Assembly (NCBI GenBank): GCA_013359225.1
Contig: JABWCG010000001.1
Span: 360,021 to 424,020 of the forward strand
Source: Candidatus Buchananbacteria bacterium
Lineage (GTDB): Bacteria; Patescibacteriota; Patescibacteriia; Buchananbacterales; UBA6539
DNA length: 64,000 nucleotides
Reading direction: 5' to 3'
Shown here piece by piece: positions 3,204 to 16,555 of the stretch (position 1 is its first letter; each line of letters starts with the position of its first letter). Under the pieces are notes generated by a model. The model did no database searches. It was not told where the DNA came from and was given only the letters and a program-made list of their open reading frames with translations. Made by a program: the position numbers and the translations under genes.

Positions 3204-3821
3204 ATGAACAATAGCGGATACAAACTGCCTGCATTACCATACAGTTATGATGCGTTGGAACCATTTATCGACCAGCAAACAATGCAGCTGCATCACGACA
3301 AACATCACCAAACGTATGTTGACAAGCTCAACGCGGCGCTAACCGGACATGAAGAACTTAAAATGAAATCTCCCGAAGAGTTAATCAGTAATTTGGAATC
3401 ACTACCAGCTGAAATCAAAACCGCTGTTCAAAATCATGGCGGGGGACACATTAACCATTCGCTGTTTTGGAATATTCTTAAAAAAGATACTGCTATCACC
3501 GGCGAAATTAAAGAAGCCATCACTACCCAATTCGGCAGTTTTGATGCTTTTAAAGAACAATTCAGTAAAGCTGCCCTCAACCAATTCGGTAGCGGCTGGG
3601 CCTGGCTTGTTGTTAATCAGGCCGGAGCACTTGAAATAACTGCTACTGCCAACCAAAACTCGCCACTGTCAGATGGCAAAATGCCAATTCTGGCACTTGA
3701 TATCTGGGAACATGCCTATTATCTCAAATATCAAAACAAGCGTCCGGATTATATTGAAGCCTTCTTTAATATTATCAACTGGGACGAAGTCAATAATAAC
3801 TATCGCGCCGCCAAGAAATAA
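3204..3821 (+). CDS. sodA: superoxide dismutase, Fe/Mn family
   Basis: Hallmark motifs [10 protein letters not shown] and [20 protein letters not shown] strong SD (AAAGGAG) precedes the ATG. Confidence 0.95.
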
Positions 3822-3830
3822 ATAACTTCT

Positions 3831-5471
3831 ATGAAAGCTTCTGACCTACTCGTTCAAGCGCTCGAAAATGAGGGAGTAACCCATATTTTTGGCGTTCCAG
3901 GTGAAGAAAATTTGGATTTGATTGATTCCCTGAGAGATTCAAAAATCAAATTGATTGTCACTCGCCACGAACAAGCCGCCGGTTTTATGGCCGCCACCGT
4001 CGGCCGGCTGACTGGCGTACCCGGCGTTGCACTTTCAACGCTTGGACCGGGTGCCACAAATTTAATTACTGCGGCAGCGTACGCCAATCTTGGCGGCATG
4101 CCGTTGTTTCTATTGACTGGACAAAAACCGGTTAAACGTAGTAAGCAGGGAAAATTTCAAATGATTGATACGGTACAAATTATGAAACCGGTTACCAAAT
4201 TTTCCAAACAGATCGTCTATAGTGAAAGCATCCCTGCGCTGGTTCGCGAAGCATTCAAAAAAGCCGAGAGCGAGCGACCGGGTGCGGTCCACCTGGAATT
4301 GCCCGAAGATGTTGCCGCTGAAAAGGTGACCGAAAAACTTTTCGCAGTCACCCAAGTCCGACGGCCCGTCGCCGACAGCAAGGCAATCAGCCTCGCTGTT
4401 GAAATGATCAAGTCAGCAAAACTACCACTGTTGGTTATTGGCGCCGCTGCCAACCGTAAACAGACTGCTAAAATGCTCCAAGAATTCATAGACAAAACCG
4501 GCATTTACTTTATTGACACCCAAATGGGCAAAGGAGTAATCGATGAACGCCACGAAAAATATCTGGGCACAGCCGCACTATCGGCCAACGATTATGTTCA
4601 CTGTGCGCTTGATCGGGCCGATCTGATTATCAACGTCGGCCACGATATCATTGAAAAGCCGCCGTTTATTATGGCCCCGGATAAAAAACAAAAAGTCATA
4701 CATATCAATTTTTTTCCGGCGGAAATCGATCAAATTTATTTCCCGCAACTTGAGGTGGTTGGAGATATTGCCAACGCCGTTTGGCAAATAAAAGAGCAGC
4801 TCCCGTCGATTAATTGGAATTTTGATTACTACCAAAAAGTCAAAACTCTGTGCGCCGAACAAATGAAAATTGCATCAGAACAGAAGAATTTTCCGTTAAG
4901 TCCTCAATCGATCGTCGAACAAATCCGTCAGGCTATGCCCGACGATGGTATCGTGGCGCTTGATAACGGAATGTATAAAGTGTGGTTTGCCCGGCAGTAC
5001 CAAACATATCAACCAAATACCTTACTGCTTGATAACGCCCTTGCCACAATGGGGGCTGGACTGCCATCGGCAATCGCCGCAAAAATTGTACATCCAAGAA
5101 AAAAGGTGTTAGCCGTTGTTGGCGACGGTGGTTTTATGATGAATTCTCAAGAATTAGAAACAGCTGTCCGGCTGGGACTTAATATAACGATTGTTATTAT
5201 TAACGACAACGGGTTTGGAATGATAAAATGGAAACAACAGGCGATGAAATTTCAAGATTTTGGCTTGAGCTACCATAATCCCGATTTTGTTGCCTATGCT
5301 CAAAGCTACGGTGCCAGCGGTCACCGAATTGAAAACAACCACTCATTAAAAAATACCATTGATCAATGCCTTAATACTCCAGGCGTTCACGTTATTGAAG
5401 TGCCGGTTGATTACTCGTATAACCACAAAATTCTAACCGAAGAATTAGCTAAAAAAACCTGTAATCTATAA
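3831..5471 (+). CDS. thiamine-pyrophosphate enzyme, acetolactate synthase large-subunit-like
   Basis: TPP-enzyme N-terminal motifs (GVPGEENLDLIDSL) and central/C-terminal TPP-binding motifs (GDGGFMMNSQELETA). Confidence 0.8.
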   Translation: MKASDLLVQALENEGVTHIFGVPGEENLDLIDSLRDSKIKLIVTRHEQAAGFMAATVGRLTGVPGVALSTLGPGATNLITAAAYANLGGMPLFLLTGQKPVKRSKQGKFQMIDTVQIMKPVTKFSKQIVYSESIPALVREAFKKAESERPGAVHLELPEDVAAEKVTEKLFAVTQVRRPVADSKAISLAVEMIKSAKLPLLVIGAAANRKQTAKMLQEFIDKTGIYFIDTQMGKGVIDERHEKYLGTAALSANDYVHCALDRADLIINVGHDIIEKPPFIMAPDKKQKVIHINFFPAEIDQIYFPQLEVVGDIANAVWQIKEQLPSINWNFDYYQKVKTLCAEQMKIASEQKNFPLSPQSIVEQIRQAMPDDGIVALDNGMYKVWFARQYQTYQPNTLLLDNALATMGAGLPSAIAAKIVHPRKKVLAVVGDGGFMMNSQELETAVRLGLNITIVIINDNGFGMIKWKQQAMKFQDFGLSYHNPDFVAYAQSYGASGHRIENNHSLKNTIDQCLNTPGVHVIEVPVDYSYNHKILTEELAKKTCNL

Positions 5472-7404: not shown

Positions 7405-8940
7405 ATGATTGAAAAATTATTCAATAAATTTAGAAGAATAGTTGACTTGATTGAGAACTCCAATATCCATCTAGGGTATTTTATTTTTACCTTTTTATCA
7501 ATCATCACTATAAGAAATTTTTTAGAGCTCTTCTCTACCAAAATAGAGCTTAATACGGCTGTAGTTTTTTTTCATTTCTATATAGGATTTATTTCACTTG
7601 CCACACTATTAATTTTAACTTTTTATATTTTAACAAGAGAATCAATTGTTAAAAGTATTAAAATAGTTTTGATTGGTTTTTCGATCCTGCCACTACCACC
7701 AATAATAGATTTAATTGCTACCGGAGGGAGGGGATTCGCCATGACCTATCTGTTACCAGAATTTCATGATCATATCATATTGCGATTTTTTACATTTTTT
7801 GGACATTTTGAAGAACGGGGAGTGTCCTTAGGTATTAAAACTGAAATCTTTATTATTCTGGTGTTAACTTTTTTGTACTTTTTGGCAAAAAAACATGGCG
7901 TCTTTAGAAGTATCGCCAACGCCTTCATAGTTTATATCATAATTTTTGGTTTTTTTGCGATTCCTTTCATCTTAAAAGGAATTTTTCTATTGCTAGGCAT
8001 CAACTATGACTACTCCGTCGATGCATGGGAAATATTATCTTTCTTATTCCTGATGATGTTTTTCTGCGGAATAATTATTTTATATTTAATAGACAAAAAA
8101 AACTTTATCACTATTGCAAAAGATGCCAGATATTTGCGACTCTCATACTATTTAGGAATGTTTTTCTGCGGAATAATTGTGGCAAAATCAACGGCAACAC
8201 TTCCCATAACGGCGCAGAATTTATTTGACTTTTTATTCACTGCCATGGCAATAACCGCCGCCTGGTTGTTTTCAGTAACCACTAATAATATCGCTGATTA
8301 TCATATTGACAAAATTTCAAACAAAAATCGACCGCTAGTTCGCCGCACAATCGCTATTGAAGATTACAAAAAAATTTCCACCCTACTTTTAGTCTGGGCA
8401 ATAATATGTTCAACTGCCGTTGGACCGGACACCCTATTTCTAGTTATTTTATTTATTTCTAGTTATTTTATTTATTCCATGCCACCAATTAGGCTGAAGC
8501 GGGTTATAGTTTTATCAAAGCTGATAATTGCGTTAAATTCCTTAGTGCTGGTTTTATTAGGTTTTTTCACTATCACCAAAACTATCAAGAGTTTCCCGGG
8601 CATCTTATTTCCGACATTGCTTATTGGTATAACCATATTAGCTAATTTTATTGATATCAAAGATTACGAAGGGGATAGAAAGAATAACATTAAAACCCTA
8701 CCAACCGTCCTAGGATTAAAATTAACAAAAATAATCATTGGATTCTCCTTCGTATTTTTCTACACCATATTATATGTATTACTACCGTATTATAATTTAG
8801 GAAATTTTTGGAATTTTTTATTCATACCACTCGGATTGCTACAATTTTATTTTGTCAATCAAAAAAAATACCAAGACAGTTATATTATCGGAACCTGCGT
8901 TATAACGGTCTTCTTGTTTGCAATTTTAAATATCTTCTAA
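7405..8940 (+). CDS. polytopic membrane protein; C-terminal UbiA-family prenyltransferase domain fused to an N-terminal membrane domain
   Basis: Two Asp-rich motifs typical of UbiA-family prenyltransferases (NNIADYHIDK and DIKDYEGDRKNN) lie in the C-terminal half. The N-terminal 280 aa are hydrophobic with no recognisable motif. The gene is preceded by an extended -10 TGgTATAAT at 7381-7389. Confidence 0.5.
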   Translation: MIEKLFNKFRRIVDLIENSNIHLGYFIFTFLSIITIRNFLELFSTKIELNTAVVFFHFYIGFISLATLLILTFYILTRESIVKSIKIVLIGFSILPLPPIIDLIATGGRGFAMTYLLPEFHDHIILRFFTFFGHFEERGVSLGIKTEIFIILVLTFLYFLAKKHGVFRSIANAFIVYIIIFGFFAIPFILKGIFLLLGINYDYSVDAWEILSFLFLMMFFCGIIILYLIDKKNFITIAKDARYLRLSYYLGMFFCGIIVAKSTATLPITAQNLFDFLFTAMAITAAWLFSVTTNNIADYHIDKISNKNRPLVRRTIAIEDYKKISTLLLVWAIICSTAVGPDTLFLVILFISSYFIYSMPPIRLKRVIVLSKLIIALNSLVLVLLGFFTITKTIKSFPGILFPTLLIGITILANFIDIKDYEGDRKNNIKTLPTVLGLKLTKIIIGFSFVFFYTILYVLLPYYNLGNFWNFLFIPLGLLQFYFVNQKKYQDSYIIGTCVITVFLFAILNIF

Positions 8941-14270: not shown

Positions 14271-14298
14271 AAAACGCCCCGCAGATGGGGCGTTTTTT
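14271..14298 (+). terminator. strong intrinsic terminator (AAAACGCCCC GCAGAT GGGGCGTTTT)
   Basis: A 10-bp perfect stem with a T-run. It closes the glycosyltransferase operon. Confidence 0.8.
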
Positions 14299-14326
14299 GA
14301 CAATATCAACAAAAAGAGGATAAAAT
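14297..14326 (+). promoter_or_regulatory. sigma-70-type promoter for the downstream leader/sRNA
   Basis: -35 TTGACA at 14297-14302, an 18-bp spacer, and -10 TAAAAT at 14321-14326. Confidence 0.5.
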
Positions 14327-14403
14327 CAAACTGTAACTTTACCCCGTGAGTTACCCTAACCGACGATCAGGCCGATCGTCAACCAGCCAAGGAGGGTAGG
14401 CTC

Positions 14404-14445
14404 ATGCGTCCGACAACTTGTTGGGCATGTACGGGAAGGAGGTGA
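14404..14445 (+). CDS. candidate leader micro-ORF (13 aa, MRPTTCWACTGRR)
   Basis: ATG 14404 lies 7 nt after AAGGAGGG (14389-14396). The TGA stop at 14443-14445 is embedded in the next SD-like element. It may be translated only as part of a regulatory mechanism. Confidence 0.2.
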   Translation: MRPTTCWACTGRR

Positions 14446-14500
14446 TCCGATCTAATCCCCAGGAAAGGAGGTGAACATCGGTTCACATTGCAGTTTGTAC

Positions 14501-14540
14501 GGGCTCCTGTGTCACTTGACGCAGGGCCCATTTTTATTTG
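14501..14540 (+). terminator. terminator-like hairpin inside the leader (GGGCtCCTG ... CAGGGCCC + ATTTTTATTTG)
   Basis: An 8-bp stem with one bulge and a 12-nt loop, followed by a T-rich tract. A -10-like TAGAAT at 14560-14565 follows, so the downstream gene may have its own weak promoter. Confidence 0.55.
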
Positions 14541-14578
14541 TCTTTTTAAGCCTGCTGGGCTAGAATAAAATTGCCAAT

Positions 14579-16555
14579 ATGAACGAAAATCTTTTTGAAA
14601 AAACTTTTATTGTTATCGTCGGTTTACTGTTAGCTACCGAAATAATGTCATTTCTTGGCCAACTATACCAACCACTCAACCTGGTTGGATTTTTTATCAT
14701 TATCATCGCCGCGGCCGTTGTTAGCTTCAAAAAATTGGAATATGGAATTTATCTCATACTCGCCGAACTCTGTATTGGCGGCAAGGGTTACCTTTTTAGT
14801 TTCGGCCTGAACAGCAGCGCCATATCCATTCGCATGGCGTTATTCCTGATATTATTTTCAGTCTGGACTGCCATAAAAATAAAAAATAAAAAAATTGGGT
14901 TTACCCTTAACAAAAAATTTCTCATACCATATAGCCTGCTGGCCCTAACTATCTGCTACGGCATCATAAACGGTTTTTTGCATAACCAAACCAGCAGTGT
15001 TATTTTTGATTTCAACGCCTGGATATTTTTTGCGTTACTTTTCATTTTTATCGACGCTCTCAACAGGCCCGATACCACCAGGGGTGCCATCAGAATTATT
15101 TTTGCCGCCACCAGCCTGCTGGCCGTAAAAACGATACTGACACTAGTGTTTTTTTCACACGGCTTAACGGAACTTGGCGACCCGTTCTATAAATGGATTC
15201 GCGACACCGGCGTAGGGGAGATTACCTATATTTCCGGAACATTATTTAGAGTCTTTTTTCAATCACAGCTCTACGTTTTAATCGGCCTGTTCATTGCATT
15301 AACGCTGGTGCTGCAAAAGAAAATCAGTCGGTCAAAAGAAGACATTCTTTTACTAATCTATATTTACCTAATGTCACTAACTTTAATTATCAGCCAATCG
15401 CGCAGTTTTTGGATAGGAGCAGCGTCAGCAATCATAGTTCTAATCGGATACCTTTGGTGGCGGTCGGAAAAGTCGTTTAAAAAAATTACTATTTTGATTA
15501 TCGCCATCATCGCCACTGTTGCGTCACAGATACTATTAATTCAAGTCCTGACCAACAATTTTTCCAGTAATCCGATTTCCGATCGTTTTAGGCACCTGTC
15601 AACCGATGCGGCCGGCAACAGCCGCCTCAACCAACTTGAACCTCTTTTATACAATATTTCTCAGCAATCCATTGTTGGTTATGGTTTCGGTAAGGAATTA
15701 ACCTATCAAAGTACTGACCCGCGGATTGTCGCATCAAATCCGGGCGGCATCTACACCACCTATGCCTTTGAGTGGGGATACTTAGACACTGTCTTAAAAC
15801 TAGGAATTTTAGGATTACTTGTCTATTTCTTTTTAGTCTATACCATTATCGTTTCTGGTCTCAAAAACCCGAGTCCAACGAATATTGGTTTATTAACGGG
15901 TTTAGTTGCCGTGCTTGCCACTAATATTTTTTCGCCTTATCTTAACCATCCGCTCGGTATTGGCTACTTATTATTATTATCAGCAATCTTTAATCAGGTC
16001 TCAATGCTGGAAAAAATCAAACAGTTTGTCCATCAATCATTTGCCCAAAGCCATTACCAAAAACAAAATACCCATTTCAAAAGAACTGAATATTGGTTTA
16101 AAAAATTAAATCCCAACTATGACGAAGCTGGCCAGATTGCTGCCTATGCTCATGATATCGAAAGGGCCTTTCGGAATAAAAACAGCGAAGAGACTTTTAA
16201 AAACATTGCTTTTAACAACCCTGAGTTTCTTAAACATCATGCCGAAACAGGAGCGGGTATTATCAGTAAATTTTTGGAAGGAAAATATGAGCCAACCGCC
16301 ATCACCAAAATTAACGAACTGATCAGACTTCACGAAATTGGTGGTACACCTGAAGCCGACCTACTGAAAGATGCTGATAGCATCAGCTATTTGGAGAATA
16401 ACGCGGCGCTTCACCTAAAGATGATTAATAAACTGGGCAAAGAAAAAGTTAAAGGAAAGATTGATTGGATGTACCAGCGCATCACTTCTAAAAAAGCCCG
16501 GGAAATTGCCCGGCCGCAGTATGAAAAAATTATCAAAATTTTAGAAAAAATCTAG
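14579..16555 (+). CDS. fusion protein: N-terminal O-antigen-ligase-like (Wzy_C) polytopic membrane domain + C-terminal HD-domain phosphohydrolase
   Basis: About 12 TM helices with a Wzy_C-like motif (LIISQSRSFWIGAAS). The C-terminal 170 aa carry HD-domain metal ligands (AAYAHDIER, LKHHAETG, RLHEIGG, LLKDADSISY). There is no SD; only a short 5' UTR. Confidence 0.6.
   Translation: MNENLFEKTFIVIVGLLLATEIMSFLGQLYQPLNLVGFFIIIIAAAVVSFKKLEYGIYLILAELCIGGKGYLFSFGLNSSAISIRMALFLILFSVWTAIKIKNKKIGFTLNKKFLIPYSLLALTICYGIINGFLHNQTSSVIFDFNAWIFFALLFIFIDALNRPDTTRGAIRIIFAATSLLAVKTILTLVFFSHGLTELGDPFYKWIRDTGVGEITYISGTLFRVFFQSQLYVLIGLFIALTLVLQKKISRSKEDILLLIYIYLMSLTLIISQSRSFWIGAASAIIVLIGYLWWRSEKSFKKITILIIAIIATVASQILLIQVLTNNFSSNPISDRFRHLSTDAAGNSRLNQLEPLLYNISQQSIVGYGFGKELTYQSTDPRIVASNPGGIYTTYAFEWGYLDTVLKLGILGLLVYFFLVYTIIVSGLKNPSPTNIGLLTGLVAVLATNIFSPYLNHPLGIGYLLLLSAIFNQVSMLEKIKQFVHQSFAQSHYQKQNTHFKRTEYWFKKLNPNYDEAGQIAAYAHDIERAFRNKNSEETFKNIAFNNPEFLKHHAETGAGIISKFLEGKYEPTAITKINELIRLHEIGGTPEADLLKDADSISYLENNAALHLKMINKLGKEKVKGKIDWMYQRITSKKAREIARPQYEKIIKILEKI

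Follow-up and report, generated by a model that had tools for sequence, protein, structure and literature searches.

Does a gene that joins an O-antigen-ligase-like membrane domain to an HD-type phosphohydrolase domain mark a partnership between two activities, or have two abutting genes simply run together? Such a gene lies in the 64,000-nt stretch of a Candidatus Buchananbacteria genome that we analyzed (hereafter, the window; features are listed in Table 1). The fusion is a true, inherited gene, and its combination of Wzy_C with DUF4202 is a new domain architecture. We assign a probability of roughly 0.55 to the reading that it arose by stop-codon loss and was inherited within a small clade, with an HD domain that still performs the reaction of its stand-alone relatives and has no dedicated part in recycling the lipid carrier.

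Two domains in one reading frame

The open reading frame exactly matches a database protein from a 601,517-bp contig, whose record name, [quoted passage not shown] conceals the second domain. As the original prediction had it, the N-terminal half is of the Wzy_C/O-antigen ligase type. It scored 38.0 bits against the Pfam Wzy_C profile over residues 262–417 (gathering cut-off 31.7; 37.7 for the orthologue in L004, the second fused genome described below), and residues 1–475 are orthologous to Wzy_C-only proteins of 470–500 aa in Patescibacteria. A PDB sequence search with the Wzy profile returned no match to any solved structure. The AlphaFold2 model (pLDDT ∼90 over residues 1–480) had WaaL as its best PDB match in Foldseek (7tpg; E 2.3e-5, probability 1.0), with a TM-score of 0.52 normalized to the target; FtsW and RodA ranked next. 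We counted 14 hydrophobic helices, where 12 had been proposed. Across 34 orthologues, the SQSRSFW motif keeps S272, S274, R275, S276, and W278 without exception. R336, R349, R382, and H457 are likewise invariant; together with R275 they lie in predicted outer loops and may correspond to catalytic residues of WaaL. In relatives, small secreted ORFs rich in Ser, Thr, Ala, and Pro sit just upstream of the Wzy_C gene, and they would allow a role in protein O-glycosylation.

Lysine and arginine are concentrated in the predicted inner loops (19, vs. six in the outer loops), and the large outer loop is followed by three predicted TM helices, with both termini inside, in a WaaL-like arrangement. This charge bias and helix order place the HD domain, by prediction, in the cytoplasm, in keeping with the original proposal. 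The full-length AlphaFold2 model is poor in its C-terminal part (pLDDT <50 over residues 499–597), which makes the mutual orientation of the domains unreliable; at that low confidence, TM14 is nearly continuous with helix 1 of the HD domain. A combined alignment of the full protein, Wzy orthologues, and DUF4202 homologues was discarded, because some 50% of the residues of the DUF4202 part ended up scattered over the N-terminal domain.

The C-terminal half, residues 476–658, aligned with stand-alone DUF4202 proteins of 176–250 aa at 44%–56% identity and 97%–100% coverage (E 8e-56 to 1e-31; more than 100 proteins carrying PF13875), and many of these free homologues also carry the HD family PF01966. 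Judged by these alignments, homology to DUF4202 is unambiguous. The original prediction had staked the domain on HD profile matching, and on that point the picture is mixed. The window sequence fell just below the Pfam gathering cut-offs for DUF4202 (PF13875; 32.9 vs. 35.1 bits) and HD (PF01966; 19.9 vs. 22) and did not reach that of TIGR00277 HDIG (14.3 vs. 27.6), but the L004 domain passed both Pfam cut-offs (44.3 and 30.5), the homology to DUF4202 is full-length, and precomputed database annotation lists PF13875 for the window protein.

The fold was confirmed as an all-helical HD bundle. HD domains are defined by the motif H..HD..D, with the dinuclear extension H..HD..H..H..D (PMC8177086). 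The full extended set was correctly recognized at the outset: All 35 homologues examined, and L004 as well, share the six ligands H499, H525-D526, H554, H585, and D600 without change, and the domain is probably dinuclear. At the Arg position that the same review describes for phosphohydrolases, DUF4202 has no conserved Arg; R27 and R54 (domain numbering) are conserved instead. A PDB profile search with the DUF4202 domain gave only marginal matches (E 0.014), and in the literature library that was searched no paper mentions DUF4202. The literature and database look-up agreed with the original statement that no such fusion was known, and the fusion appears to be undescribed so far.

Table 1. Features of the fusion gene and its upstream region (window coordinates)
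Feature	Position	Strand	Remarks
Near-consensus sigma-70-like promoter, TTGACA-18-TAAAAT	14297..14326	+	11/12; start of upstream intergenic element
GC-rich structured transcript-like element	14333..14535	+	z = -4.7; start inferred from promoter
15-mer GGAAGGAGGTGATCC	14434..14448	+	Matches reverse complement of probable 16S rRNA 3' end (L164)
Weaker promoter-like site, TTGTCT-17-TAGAAT	14538..14566	+	-10-like box ends 12 nt before ATG
Fused ORF, Wzy_C/WaaL-like membrane domain + DUF4202 (HD-superfamily) domain	14579..16555	+	658 aa; ATG start; NUM25382.1
Membrane domain, residues 1–475	14579..16003	+	14 predicted TM helices, N-in/C-in, WaaL-like fold
Pfam Wzy_C (PF04932) match, residues 262–417	15362..15829	+	Profile match
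SQSRSFW motif, residues 272–278	15392..15412	+	Short outer loop between TM9 and TM10
Large predicted extracytoplasmic loop, residues 326–399	15554..15775	+	Holds invariant R336, R349, D380, R382, E398
Junction TCA-ATG, Ser475-Met476	16001..16006	+	
Complete DUF4202/HD-fold domain, residues 476–658	16004..16555	+	All-helical, predicted cytoplasmic
Six predicted metal ligands	16073..16378	+	H499, H525, D526, H554, H585 (with E586), D600
CTAG, palindromic 4-nt overlap	16552..16555	.	Fusion-gene stop (TAG) with stop of convergent fmt

A second fused genome and the origin of the junction

A matching fusion was found in L004 (JAVEXP010000001.1), the 331-kb contig of a Patescibacteria MAG from another study. 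Its one fused ORF of 653 aa is 52% identical to ours over the full length, keeps all catalytic invariants, and has its junction at the identical position (Ser then Met). Synteny is also shared with the window, down to a 4-nt palindromic stop overlap with fmt, which reads TTAA in L004. Since an independent MAG carries the matching fusion, the gene is no assembly artefact, and the single fused ORF of ligase-like and HD halves has stood up. Separate genes in relatives would, by the original prediction, have counted against the fusion; L004 is fused, and our search among relatives for an unfused intermediate, with the two genes adjacent yet separate, found none.

That the stop between two separate genes is missing through an error of sequencing or assembly, or through a recent inactivating mutation at a decaying locus, is thus highly improbable. 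Such an event would account for the fact that this is the sole such protein among the listed best hits in databases of 5.8e9 and 1.84e9 sequences, for the presence of Wzy_C alone in the closest relative (L001), and for a junction codon a single change away from a stop; L004, with the same junction and flanks at 52% identity, largely refutes it already, and neither family's invariant residues have been lost.

The fusion is nonetheless rare. Of the 150 best hits of an exhaustive phmmer search through 1.84e9 representatives, none but the query matched along all of residues 1–658, and a word-indexed search of 5.8e9 sequences gave no other fusion among the 120 best listed hits. Among 80 metagenomic Wzy-ortholog loci, none was fused and none had DUF4202 within 4 kb. 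Conversely, 80 DUF4202 loci from species-representative genomes included a single Wzy_C+DUF4202 fusion; the domain stood alone in 75 of them. The fusion is so far known from two genomes only.

DUF4202 itself behaves as a floating gene. Its neighborhood is not conserved, with the largest neighbor family present in five out of 80 loci, and the most frequent neighbor family, NUDIX, accounted for just six out of 149 ORFs. We found four other fusions, with YdjC (L022), GrpB (L042), ApbA/PanE (L064), and NUDIX (L082). Every fusion is one ORF that has DUF4202 at its C-terminal end, and every one comes from a genome of the Patescibacteria type; the partners of DUF4202, at least five in number, are mutually unrelated. 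Given this lack of a conserved neighborhood and the variety of partners, the Wzy_C fusion is probably opportunistic as well.

When six flanking proteins were concatenated, the resulting tree grouped the window with L001 (100% bootstrap) and this pair with L004 (93%). L001 lacks the DUF4202 domain, and the pattern is consistent with a single gain within a small clade and a loss in L001. Neighbor-joining trees of the single domains did not place the window and L004 as sisters (bootstrap 4% for Wzy and 13% for DUF4202), their resolution being too poor, so the case for a single origin rests on the flanking genes and the shared junction features. The closest free DUF4202 genes (P0128 and P0123) lie in unrelated gene contexts.

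The junction suggests how the frames were joined. In alignments, Met476 falls on the initiator Met of many free DUF4202 proteins, Wzy_C orthologues end 10–14 residues past their GIGY motif, at the exact site of Met476, and the codon TCA is a single substitution away from TAA or TGA. Because the internal Met coincides with the free start and TCA is one change from a stop, loss of a stop codon between abutting genes is the likely origin. We envisage that a free DUF4202 gene inserted into the variable slot between Wzy_C and fmt, abutting the Wzy_C stop codon, and that this stop (TAA or TGA) then mutated to TCA, joining the frames and leaving the former DUF4202 start as Met476.

Expression signals and gene neighborhood

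Retention of Met476 in both genomes is a counterpoint to our main reading, as separate translation of DUF4202 is possible. An extra start of translation or transcription there would yield a free 183-aa DUF4202 protein, making the locus two proteins in practice and the fused form minor or irrelevant. We regard this as unlikely. In its favor, Met476 is present in both fused genes at the position of the native start of free homologues, the other four DUF4202 fusions have no junction Met, and a TTTAAT hexamer lies 9 nt 5' of the ATG at 16004. The missing Shine-Dalgarno site is uninformative: Such sites precede only four of the 51 genes in the window, where -10-like boxes are often found just 5' of the ATG. 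However, no recognizable -35 element lies upstream of the ATG at 16004, promoter-like sites in the region are no commoner than in shuffled sequence (six found vs. 5.2 expected), and an open junction frame would be unexpected in two diverged genomes if the separate products were all that counted, a stop being so easily regained.

The region upstream of the fusion gene had been taken as an elaborate leader pointing to regulation. It looks instead like a separate promoter-to-terminator unit and gives no evidence for regulation of the fusion gene, which has a -10-like box of its own, a site that would give a leaderless or near-leaderless mRNA. The upstream element contains three Shine-Dalgarno-like boxes and a 13-codon ORF and ends in an intrinsic terminator (stem 14505-14526 plus a T-run); Rfam had no match for it or elsewhere in the window. 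Its 15-mer is kept in the matching intergenic gap of six other Wzy-ortholog loci, and the blastn match of the leader to relatives is confined to the short region of this 15-mer. No consensus structure was found for the element, and the pairing partner of the 15-mer varies between loci.

The genes upstream of the fusion are, in order, UbiA, Wzx, GT4, GT2, NUDIX, pseudouridine synthase, and GT2, with fmt and def convergent on the other side. On our main reading, the WaaL-like domain would transfer or polymerize a polyprenyl-PP-linked glycan at the outer face, the glycan being supplied by the upstream Wzx/GT4/GT2 genes. Cells of Patescibacteria are not known to have lipid A, and for that reason the acceptor in this monoderm CPR cell should differ from that of WaaL. 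Between the last TM helix and helix 1 of the HD domain there would be almost no linker. This domain, probably dinuclear and on the cytoplasmic side, would most likely go on hydrolyzing a soluble substrate of the cytoplasm, a nucleotide or another phosphoester, but now at the membrane. Nucleotide (pyro)phosphates are the substrates of its nearest characterized structural relatives (YpgQ, small alarmone hydrolases, MESH1, and YqeK), and a nucleotide-type substrate is expected on that account. Such a fusion would be tolerated and perhaps mildly useful, as it guarantees co-expression where Shine-Dalgarno sites are rare.

A different role, recycling of the lipid carrier, had originally been suggested for the HD domain. 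The enzymes BacA and PAP2 work on the outer side of the membrane. A cytoplasmic HD domain could not reach undecaprenyl-PP released on that side, which disfavors recycling, and the absence of DUF4202 within 4 kb at all 80 Wzy loci and the unrelated fusion partners also speak against it. Pfam and NCBIfam scans of the fused protein at E-values up to 10 found no BacA or PAP2 family match.

The fused HD domain might still serve the glycan pathway in another way, having been selected for placing a phosphohydrolase at the site of assembly. Its substrates could then be UDP/UMP by-products, a sugar-phosphate or nucleotide-sugar precursor near the glycosyltransferases, or an inner-leaflet polyprenyl-phosphate-linked intermediate. 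We consider such coupling doubtful, though several observations point its way. The fusion persisted in two lineages that are ∼50% diverged with catalytic residues conserved in both halves, a counterpoint to our main reading that could reflect selection for being fused; continuity between TM14 and the first HD helix, modeled at low confidence, would keep the active site near the membrane; and the glycan cluster itself counts NUDIX among its conserved genes. Moreover, the slot between Wzy and fmt holds other phosphohydrolases in relatives: His_Phos_1 in six loci, two of which (L002 and L003) have an 8-nt overlap with the Wzy stop, as well as NUDIX (with GNAT), HAD, and CYTH. In 149 control ORFs, NUDIX (six) was the sole recurring phosphohydrolase family, with His_Phos_1, HAD, and CYTH each seen fewer than two times. 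This hints that a phosphohydrolase beside this Wzy_C gene may not be accidental.

Against coupling, the slot also houses the unrelated Vut_1, GNAT, 2-hydroxyacid dehydrogenase, and AMMECR1, along with unknown genes, and the enrichment argument is post hoc and drawn from lineages that are not independent. No conserved linkage ties DUF4202 to envelope genes. Since DUF4202 occurs near none of the 80 metagenomic Wzy-ortholog loci and the slot is empty in 17 out of 39, the Wzy_C ligase needs no such partner. An analogy with DPPR phosphatase, in which the UbiA-family enzyme would produce a polyprenyl-phospho-sugar-phosphate in need of a phosphatase, was dropped because NCBIfam gave only weak generic prenyltransferase matches for the upstream UbiA-family gene and none to the decaprenyl-phosphate phosphoribosyltransferase model. 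A version in which the HD domain is integral to the glycan machinery, handling an inner-leaflet polyprenyl-(pyro)phosphate intermediate or nucleotide by-products, while His_Phos_1, NUDIX, HAD, and CYTH proteins do so in trans elsewhere, seems to us distinctly unlikely.

Significance and comparison with known systems

If opportunistic, the fusion offers a clean, datable case of abutting genes merging by stop-codon loss in compact CPR genomes, and it warns against reading "Rosetta-stone" fusions as functional links in these genomes. If the halves cooperate, the fusion gives a handle on the function of DUF4202, a family widespread in CPR bacteria and DPANN archaea, and on the role of a conserved Wzx/GT/Wzy_C cluster in cells without lipopolysaccharide. 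Were the HD domain integral to the glycan machinery, this would be the first function for DUF4202 and would imply a CPR-specific turnover of carrier lipid or nucleotides on the cytoplasmic side that uses neither BacA nor PAP2.

The Wzy_C family (PF04932) comprises WaaL, the protein O-oligosaccharyltransferases PglL/PilO/TfpO, and some Wzy polymerases. The membrane half resembles WaaL of Cupriavidus metallidurans (7tpg) in being polytopic with termini inside, in the large outer loop before its last three helices, in the nearby genes for a Wzx flippase and glycosyltransferases, and perhaps in the conserved Arg, His, and Asp residues of its outer loops. It differs in having 14 predicted helices instead of 12, and no known member of the family has a C-terminal HD domain.

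The C-terminal half closely resembles stand-alone DUF4202 (PF13875) of Patescibacteria and DPANN archaea, with which it shares an equal length and the invariant residues H24, H50, D51, H79, H110, E111, and D125; the free proteins have 176–223 aa, whereas here the domain is tethered to the membrane. We also compared it with small HD phosphohydrolases, namely, YpgQ (an NTP pyrophosphohydrolase, 5dqv), 2pq7, YedJ (3gw7), and the small alarmone hydrolases/MESH1. The characterized enzymes of this kind are only 14%–21% identical to the DUF4202 domain in sequence, but the spacing of its ligands (H24, H50, D51, H79, H110, D125) nearly equals that in the dinuclear Ap4A hydrolase YqeK (H21, H50, D51, H83, H109, D127; 2o08/8wmy).

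In overall layout, with its polytopic membrane part placed ahead of a dinuclear HD domain in the cytoplasm, the fusion recalls the PgpH-type 7TM receptor-HD proteins (membrane-anchored c-di-AMP phosphodiesterase, 4s1b), although it tested negative for the 7TM receptor module and the PgpH-type HD. The YdjC-, GrpB-, ApbA/PanE-, and NUDIX-DUF4202 fusions differ from the present one in that their partners are soluble and unrelated to Wzy_C.

A fused reading frame found in two genomes

NUM25382.1, listed as 'O-antigen ligase family protein [Candidatus Buchananbacteria bacterium]' from a 601,517-bp MAG contig, is identical to the 658-aa ORF of the fusion gene. Pfam placed Wzy_C at residues 262–417 (38.0 bits vs. 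a cut-off of 31.7), DUF4202 at residues 489–644 (32.9 vs. 35.1) and HD at residues 499–604 (19.9 vs. 22), and NCBIfam added only a weak HDIG match. A scan for relatives of DUF4202, with each GTDB species represented by a single genome, gave 80 loci (the best 80 of 154), of which L004 alone (JAVEXP010000001.1, a 331-kb contig of Patescibacteria bacterium BF4_175) had a Wzy-domain match directly upstream. There, a single 653-aa ORF aligns end to end with the window protein at 52% identity and scores above the Pfam cut-off for each of the three families (Wzy_C 37.7, DUF4202 44.3, HD 30.5). The junctions are equivalent (…GIGYLLLLSAIFNQVS/MLEKIKQF in the window, …GIGYLMLTTALIYQPPS/MFDKIKKY in L004), flanking gene order is identical, and each fused gene ends in a 4-nt palindrome in which the convergent fmt stop lies too (CTAG and TTAA, respectively). 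A shared assembly error is impossible in two independent, so diverged assemblies; the fused reading frame is therefore genuine, as the original prediction had claimed.

The gene order in the window is UbiA-family protein, Wzx, GT4, GT2, NUDIX, pseudouridine synthase, GT2, a 314-nt gap and the fusion gene, with fmt and def convergent to it, which agrees, with two additions, with the predicted position downstream of a Wzx/GT4/GT2 cluster. In the 511-aa protein heading this glycan cluster, the UbiA prenyltransferase domain is confined to residues 272–484; the N-terminal ∼270 residues matched no Pfam family, and NCBIfam gave only weak generic prenyltransferase matches.

Among the 120 best matches of a word-indexed search of 5.8e9 clusters, no protein except the query had both domains. 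An exhaustive phmmer search of 1.84e9 representatives returned the query alone as spanning residues 1–658 in the top 150; all other matches end near residue 470–490, and two carry N-terminal extensions instead. DUF4202 was a free gene (178–223 aa) in 75 of the 80 species loci, and neither the fusion nor DUF4202 within 4 kb was seen in metagenomic Wzy-ortholog loci (0/80, the best 80 of at least 348). Known instances amount to two genomes, and the fusion is a new domain architecture from two known families: real, heritable and very rare.

Coordinates of features in the window and in related loci
Feature	Locus	Position	Details
UbiA-family gene	window	7405–8940 (+)	
Hairpin + T-run	window	after GT2 gene, first in gap	seen in sequence
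Near-consensus promoter	window	14297–14326	
GC-rich, strongly folding stretch	window	between promoter and terminator of gap	z = -4.7
Tiny ORF	window	14386–14427 (+)	
15-mer	window	14434–14448 (+)	
15-mer, exact	L001; L084; L110	3311; 2911; 3833	same strand
15-mer, 1 mismatch	L088; L100	3807; 829	same strand
15-mer, 2 mismatches	L087	3012	same strand
Intrinsic terminator	window	14505–14535	
Weaker promoter-like site	window	ends 12 nt before fusion-gene ATG	within gap
Fusion gene	window	14579–16555 (+)	
Fusion gene	L004	4585–6546	
Small gap ORF	L002; L004; L084	4761–5288; 3979–4479; 3302–3862	
Small gap ORF	L087; L089	3134–3622; 2295–2894	
Small gap ORF	L001	gap around 3708–4118	
His_Phos_1 gene	L002	7484–8026	in slot
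YdjC-DUF4202	L022	4113–5321	single ORF, DUF4202 C-terminal
GrpB-DUF4202	L042	139–1230	single ORF, DUF4202 C-terminal
ApbA/PanE-DUF4202	L064	5074–6543	single ORF, DUF4202 C-terminal
NUDIX-DUF4202	L082	5503–6528	single ORF, DUF4202 C-terminal
Stretch without called genes	L164	2089–5000	probably holds a 16S rRNA gene ending near 3934–3948

Origin of the fusion

By flanking-gene identity (mean 69%), the closest relative of the window is L001, in which the end of fmt lies 27 nt downstream of Wzy_C and DUF4202 is lacking. When six flanking proteins were concatenated (1,603 positions), neighbour joining grouped the window with L001 (100% bootstrap) and this pair with L004 (93% bootstrap); single-domain trees (Wzy or DUF4202) left the window and L004 poorly grouped (bootstrap for a sister pairing, 4% and 13%). 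The simplest history is one gain in the ancestor of all three and one loss in L001.

What lies in the slot between the Wzy_C gene and fmt varies: 17/39 loci have nothing there, and the others carry His_Phos_1, Vut_1, NUDIX+GNAT, HAD, CYTH, 2-hydroxyacid dehydrogenase, AMMECR1 or unknown genes. A sister lineage carries a 180-aa His_Phos_1 phosphatase gene there (L002, with equivalents in L003, L085, L087, L089 and L111), and L002 and L003 show an 8-nt overlap between this gene and the Wzy_C stop. Unfused orthologues stop 10–14 residues past the GIGY motif, at the position of Met476, and the junction ATG is preceded by TCA, a single substitution away from TAA or TGA. These sequences suggest that the fusion most likely arose by stop-codon loss in the slot, where a DUF4202 gene would have abutted the Wzy_C stop and the loss of that stop would have joined both frames. 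Adjacent but separate Wzy_C and DUF4202 genes were not found among the Wzy-ortholog loci and the nearest free DUF4202 contexts.

With four further fusion partners (YdjC, GrpB, ApbA/PanE and NUDIX), DUF4202 seems unusually prone to fuse with any upstream gene. Its gene neighbourhood is not conserved; in the 281 ORFs that flank it at the 80 DUF4202 loci, the largest family was a serine hydrolase (five loci), and the others were unrelated housekeeping genes.

The gap upstream of the fusion gene

The gap has the appearance of an independent unit, with a leaderless or short-leader gene after it, and read-through control of the fusion gene from it is possible. Rfam gave no match for the gap element, and a gathering-threshold search of the 64-kb window returned no RNA family, not even tRNA. 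With its promoter-to-terminator layout, the 'elaborate leader' of the original prediction is not riboswitch-type in look. Across the window, a Shine-Dalgarno-like sequence precedes 4/51 ORFs of >150 aa (two of the four in a high-GC stretch at 58–61 kb), and many genes have a TATAAT-like -10 box 6–14 nt before the ATG, suggesting that leaderless mRNAs are widespread.

The 15-mer GGAAGGAGGTGATCC recurs in the same gap and strand, with two mismatches or fewer, in six other Wzy-ortholog loci (seven in all); we estimate that chance alone would give ∼0.003 exact matches across the 2.75 Mb scanned. Read in reverse complement, the probable 16S rRNA 3' end in L164 matches it. This locus served only to check that tail: a 2.9-kb stretch without called genes carries GGATCACCTCCTTTC on the + strand. 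Two further Shine-Dalgarno-like boxes flank the 15-mer, and 'ATCT' lies 5–9 nt downstream. Its reading frame and predicted pairing partner vary among loci, so it seems to be conserved as primary sequence. The tiny ORF begins 7–9 nt past the first Shine-Dalgarno-like box and has its TGA stop inside the 15-mer (peptides MRPTTCWACTGRR in the window, MSNDISVRLVKAGRCHSGRASTERR in L088 and MMSFYDISVCLISDGRCRIRQACTERR in L100); the frame through the 15-mer differs in L084 and L110. Given the intrinsic terminator downstream, the tiny ORF could encode the leader peptide of an attenuator.

The closest relatives have a small ORF (160–200 aa) in this gap, which is absent from the window genome. These ORFs start with a hydrophobic anchor (often MKRCT…), consist of 40%–49% Ser/Thr/Ala/Pro, have 57%–64% GC (vs. 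35%–42% for their loci) and share almost no sequence similarity. Their position recalls that of the pilin gene adjoining TfpO, a Wzy_C-family O-oligosaccharyltransferase, and by this analogy suggests that the product may be a glycoprotein substrate.

Topology and putative roles of the two halves

More than 100 Patescibacteria proteins (470–550 aa) match residues 1 to ∼475 at 37%–57% identity, and all end there. An alignment of 34 orthologues of this domain had 52 invariant columns, including S272, S274, R275, S276 and W278 of the SQSRSFW motif as well as R336, R349, D380, R382, E398, D403 and N456-H457-P458. A profile search of PDB sequences with the Wzy domain gave no match; the AlphaFold2 model of the fusion protein (pLDDT ∼90 over residues 1–480) best matched WaaL (7tpg; Foldseek E 2.3e-5, probability 1.0), followed by FtsW and RodA. 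Together with the Wzy_C score, this upholds the proposed polytopic O-antigen-ligase-like domain, although we counted 14 hydrophobic helices and not 12. With the N-terminus taken as inside, short inner loops hold 19 K+R and outer loops six, and the SQSRS and NIFSPYLNHPLG motifs and a 74-residue loop (residues 326–399) are predicted outside. Three helices follow this loop, so the C-terminus of the membrane domain is predicted to be inside.

Residues 476–658 matched 152 proteins; the 120 listed are 159–250 aa long, annotated PF13875 with or without PF01966, and almost all have 97%–100% query coverage at 40%–56% identity (E down to 8e-56). H499, H525, D526, H554, H585, E586 and D600 (domain H24, H50, D51, H79, H110, E111 and D125) are invariant across homologues, bearing out the full H..HD..H..H..D ligand set first proposed. 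This six-residue motif marks a dinuclear site in the HD superfamily (PMC8177086), and its spacing almost equals that of the YqeK ligands H21, H50, D51, H83, H109 and D127 (PMC8177086). The HD assignment is sound although the window protein falls slightly short of the DUF4202 and HD thresholds of Pfam. A literature search found no paper mentioning DUF4202.

The family is spread over Patescibacteria and DPANN archaea. The subfamily closest to the window (L005–L083; 40%–55% identity) is common to Patescibacteria and to Woesearchaeota, Nanoarchaeota, Pacearchaeota, Iainarchaeum and Nanohaloarchaea, suggesting exchange between the two groups, both of them small-celled. For several records, the label (Methanosarcinales, Gammaproteobacteria or Scalindua) may have been given to the bin in error.

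Met476 lines up with the annotated start of many free homologues (MLDKVKQFV…, MLEKIKRFV…) and is present in both Wzy_C-DUF4202 fusions but missing from the other four DUF4202 fusions. Internal initiation there, yielding a separate DUF4202 product besides the fused protein, is possible; Shine-Dalgarno sites are so rare in the window that their absence before Met476 is uninformative.

Most evidence indicates that fusion does not necessarily mean cooperation, given the absence of a conserved DUF4202 neighbourhood, the unrelated fusion partners, the variable and often empty slot, and the topology. On these grounds we consider it unlikely that the HD and ligase domains work together. Two observations nevertheless favour a functional link. 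The fusion has persisted, with neither active site lost, while the sequences diverged by ∼50%; and the slot genes include several small phosphohydrolases that belong to different superfamilies, with NUDIX (six) alone recurring among 149 control ORFs. This comparison is post hoc and its lineages are non-independent. Undecaprenyl-PP is freed by the ligase at the outer face, which is also where the known phosphatases BacA and PAP2 work. The predicted inside location of the HD domain disfavours the carrier recycling originally proposed. The original observation stands and its interpretation is supported in part. The fusion would be more interesting if the HD domain acts on a glycan-pathway intermediate.

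In the structural comparison, the DUF4202 domain scored 15.2 with 2pq7 (a predicted HD hydrolase), 13.8 with YpgQ, 12.5 with a small alarmone hydrolase, 11.9 with YedJ, 11.6 with MESH1, and 10.9 (2o08) and 9.6 (8wmy) with YqeK. NUDIX is both the commonest DUF4202 neighbour and one of its fusion partners. Every structural neighbour with a characterised activity is a hydrolase of nucleotide (pyro)phosphates: NTPs and dNTPs for YpgQ, (p)ppGpp or NADPH for small alarmone hydrolases and MESH1, and Ap4A for YqeK. By analogy with these enzymes, and from the NUDIX association, our best guess, held with low confidence, is that the HD domain may act on a nucleotide-type substrate.
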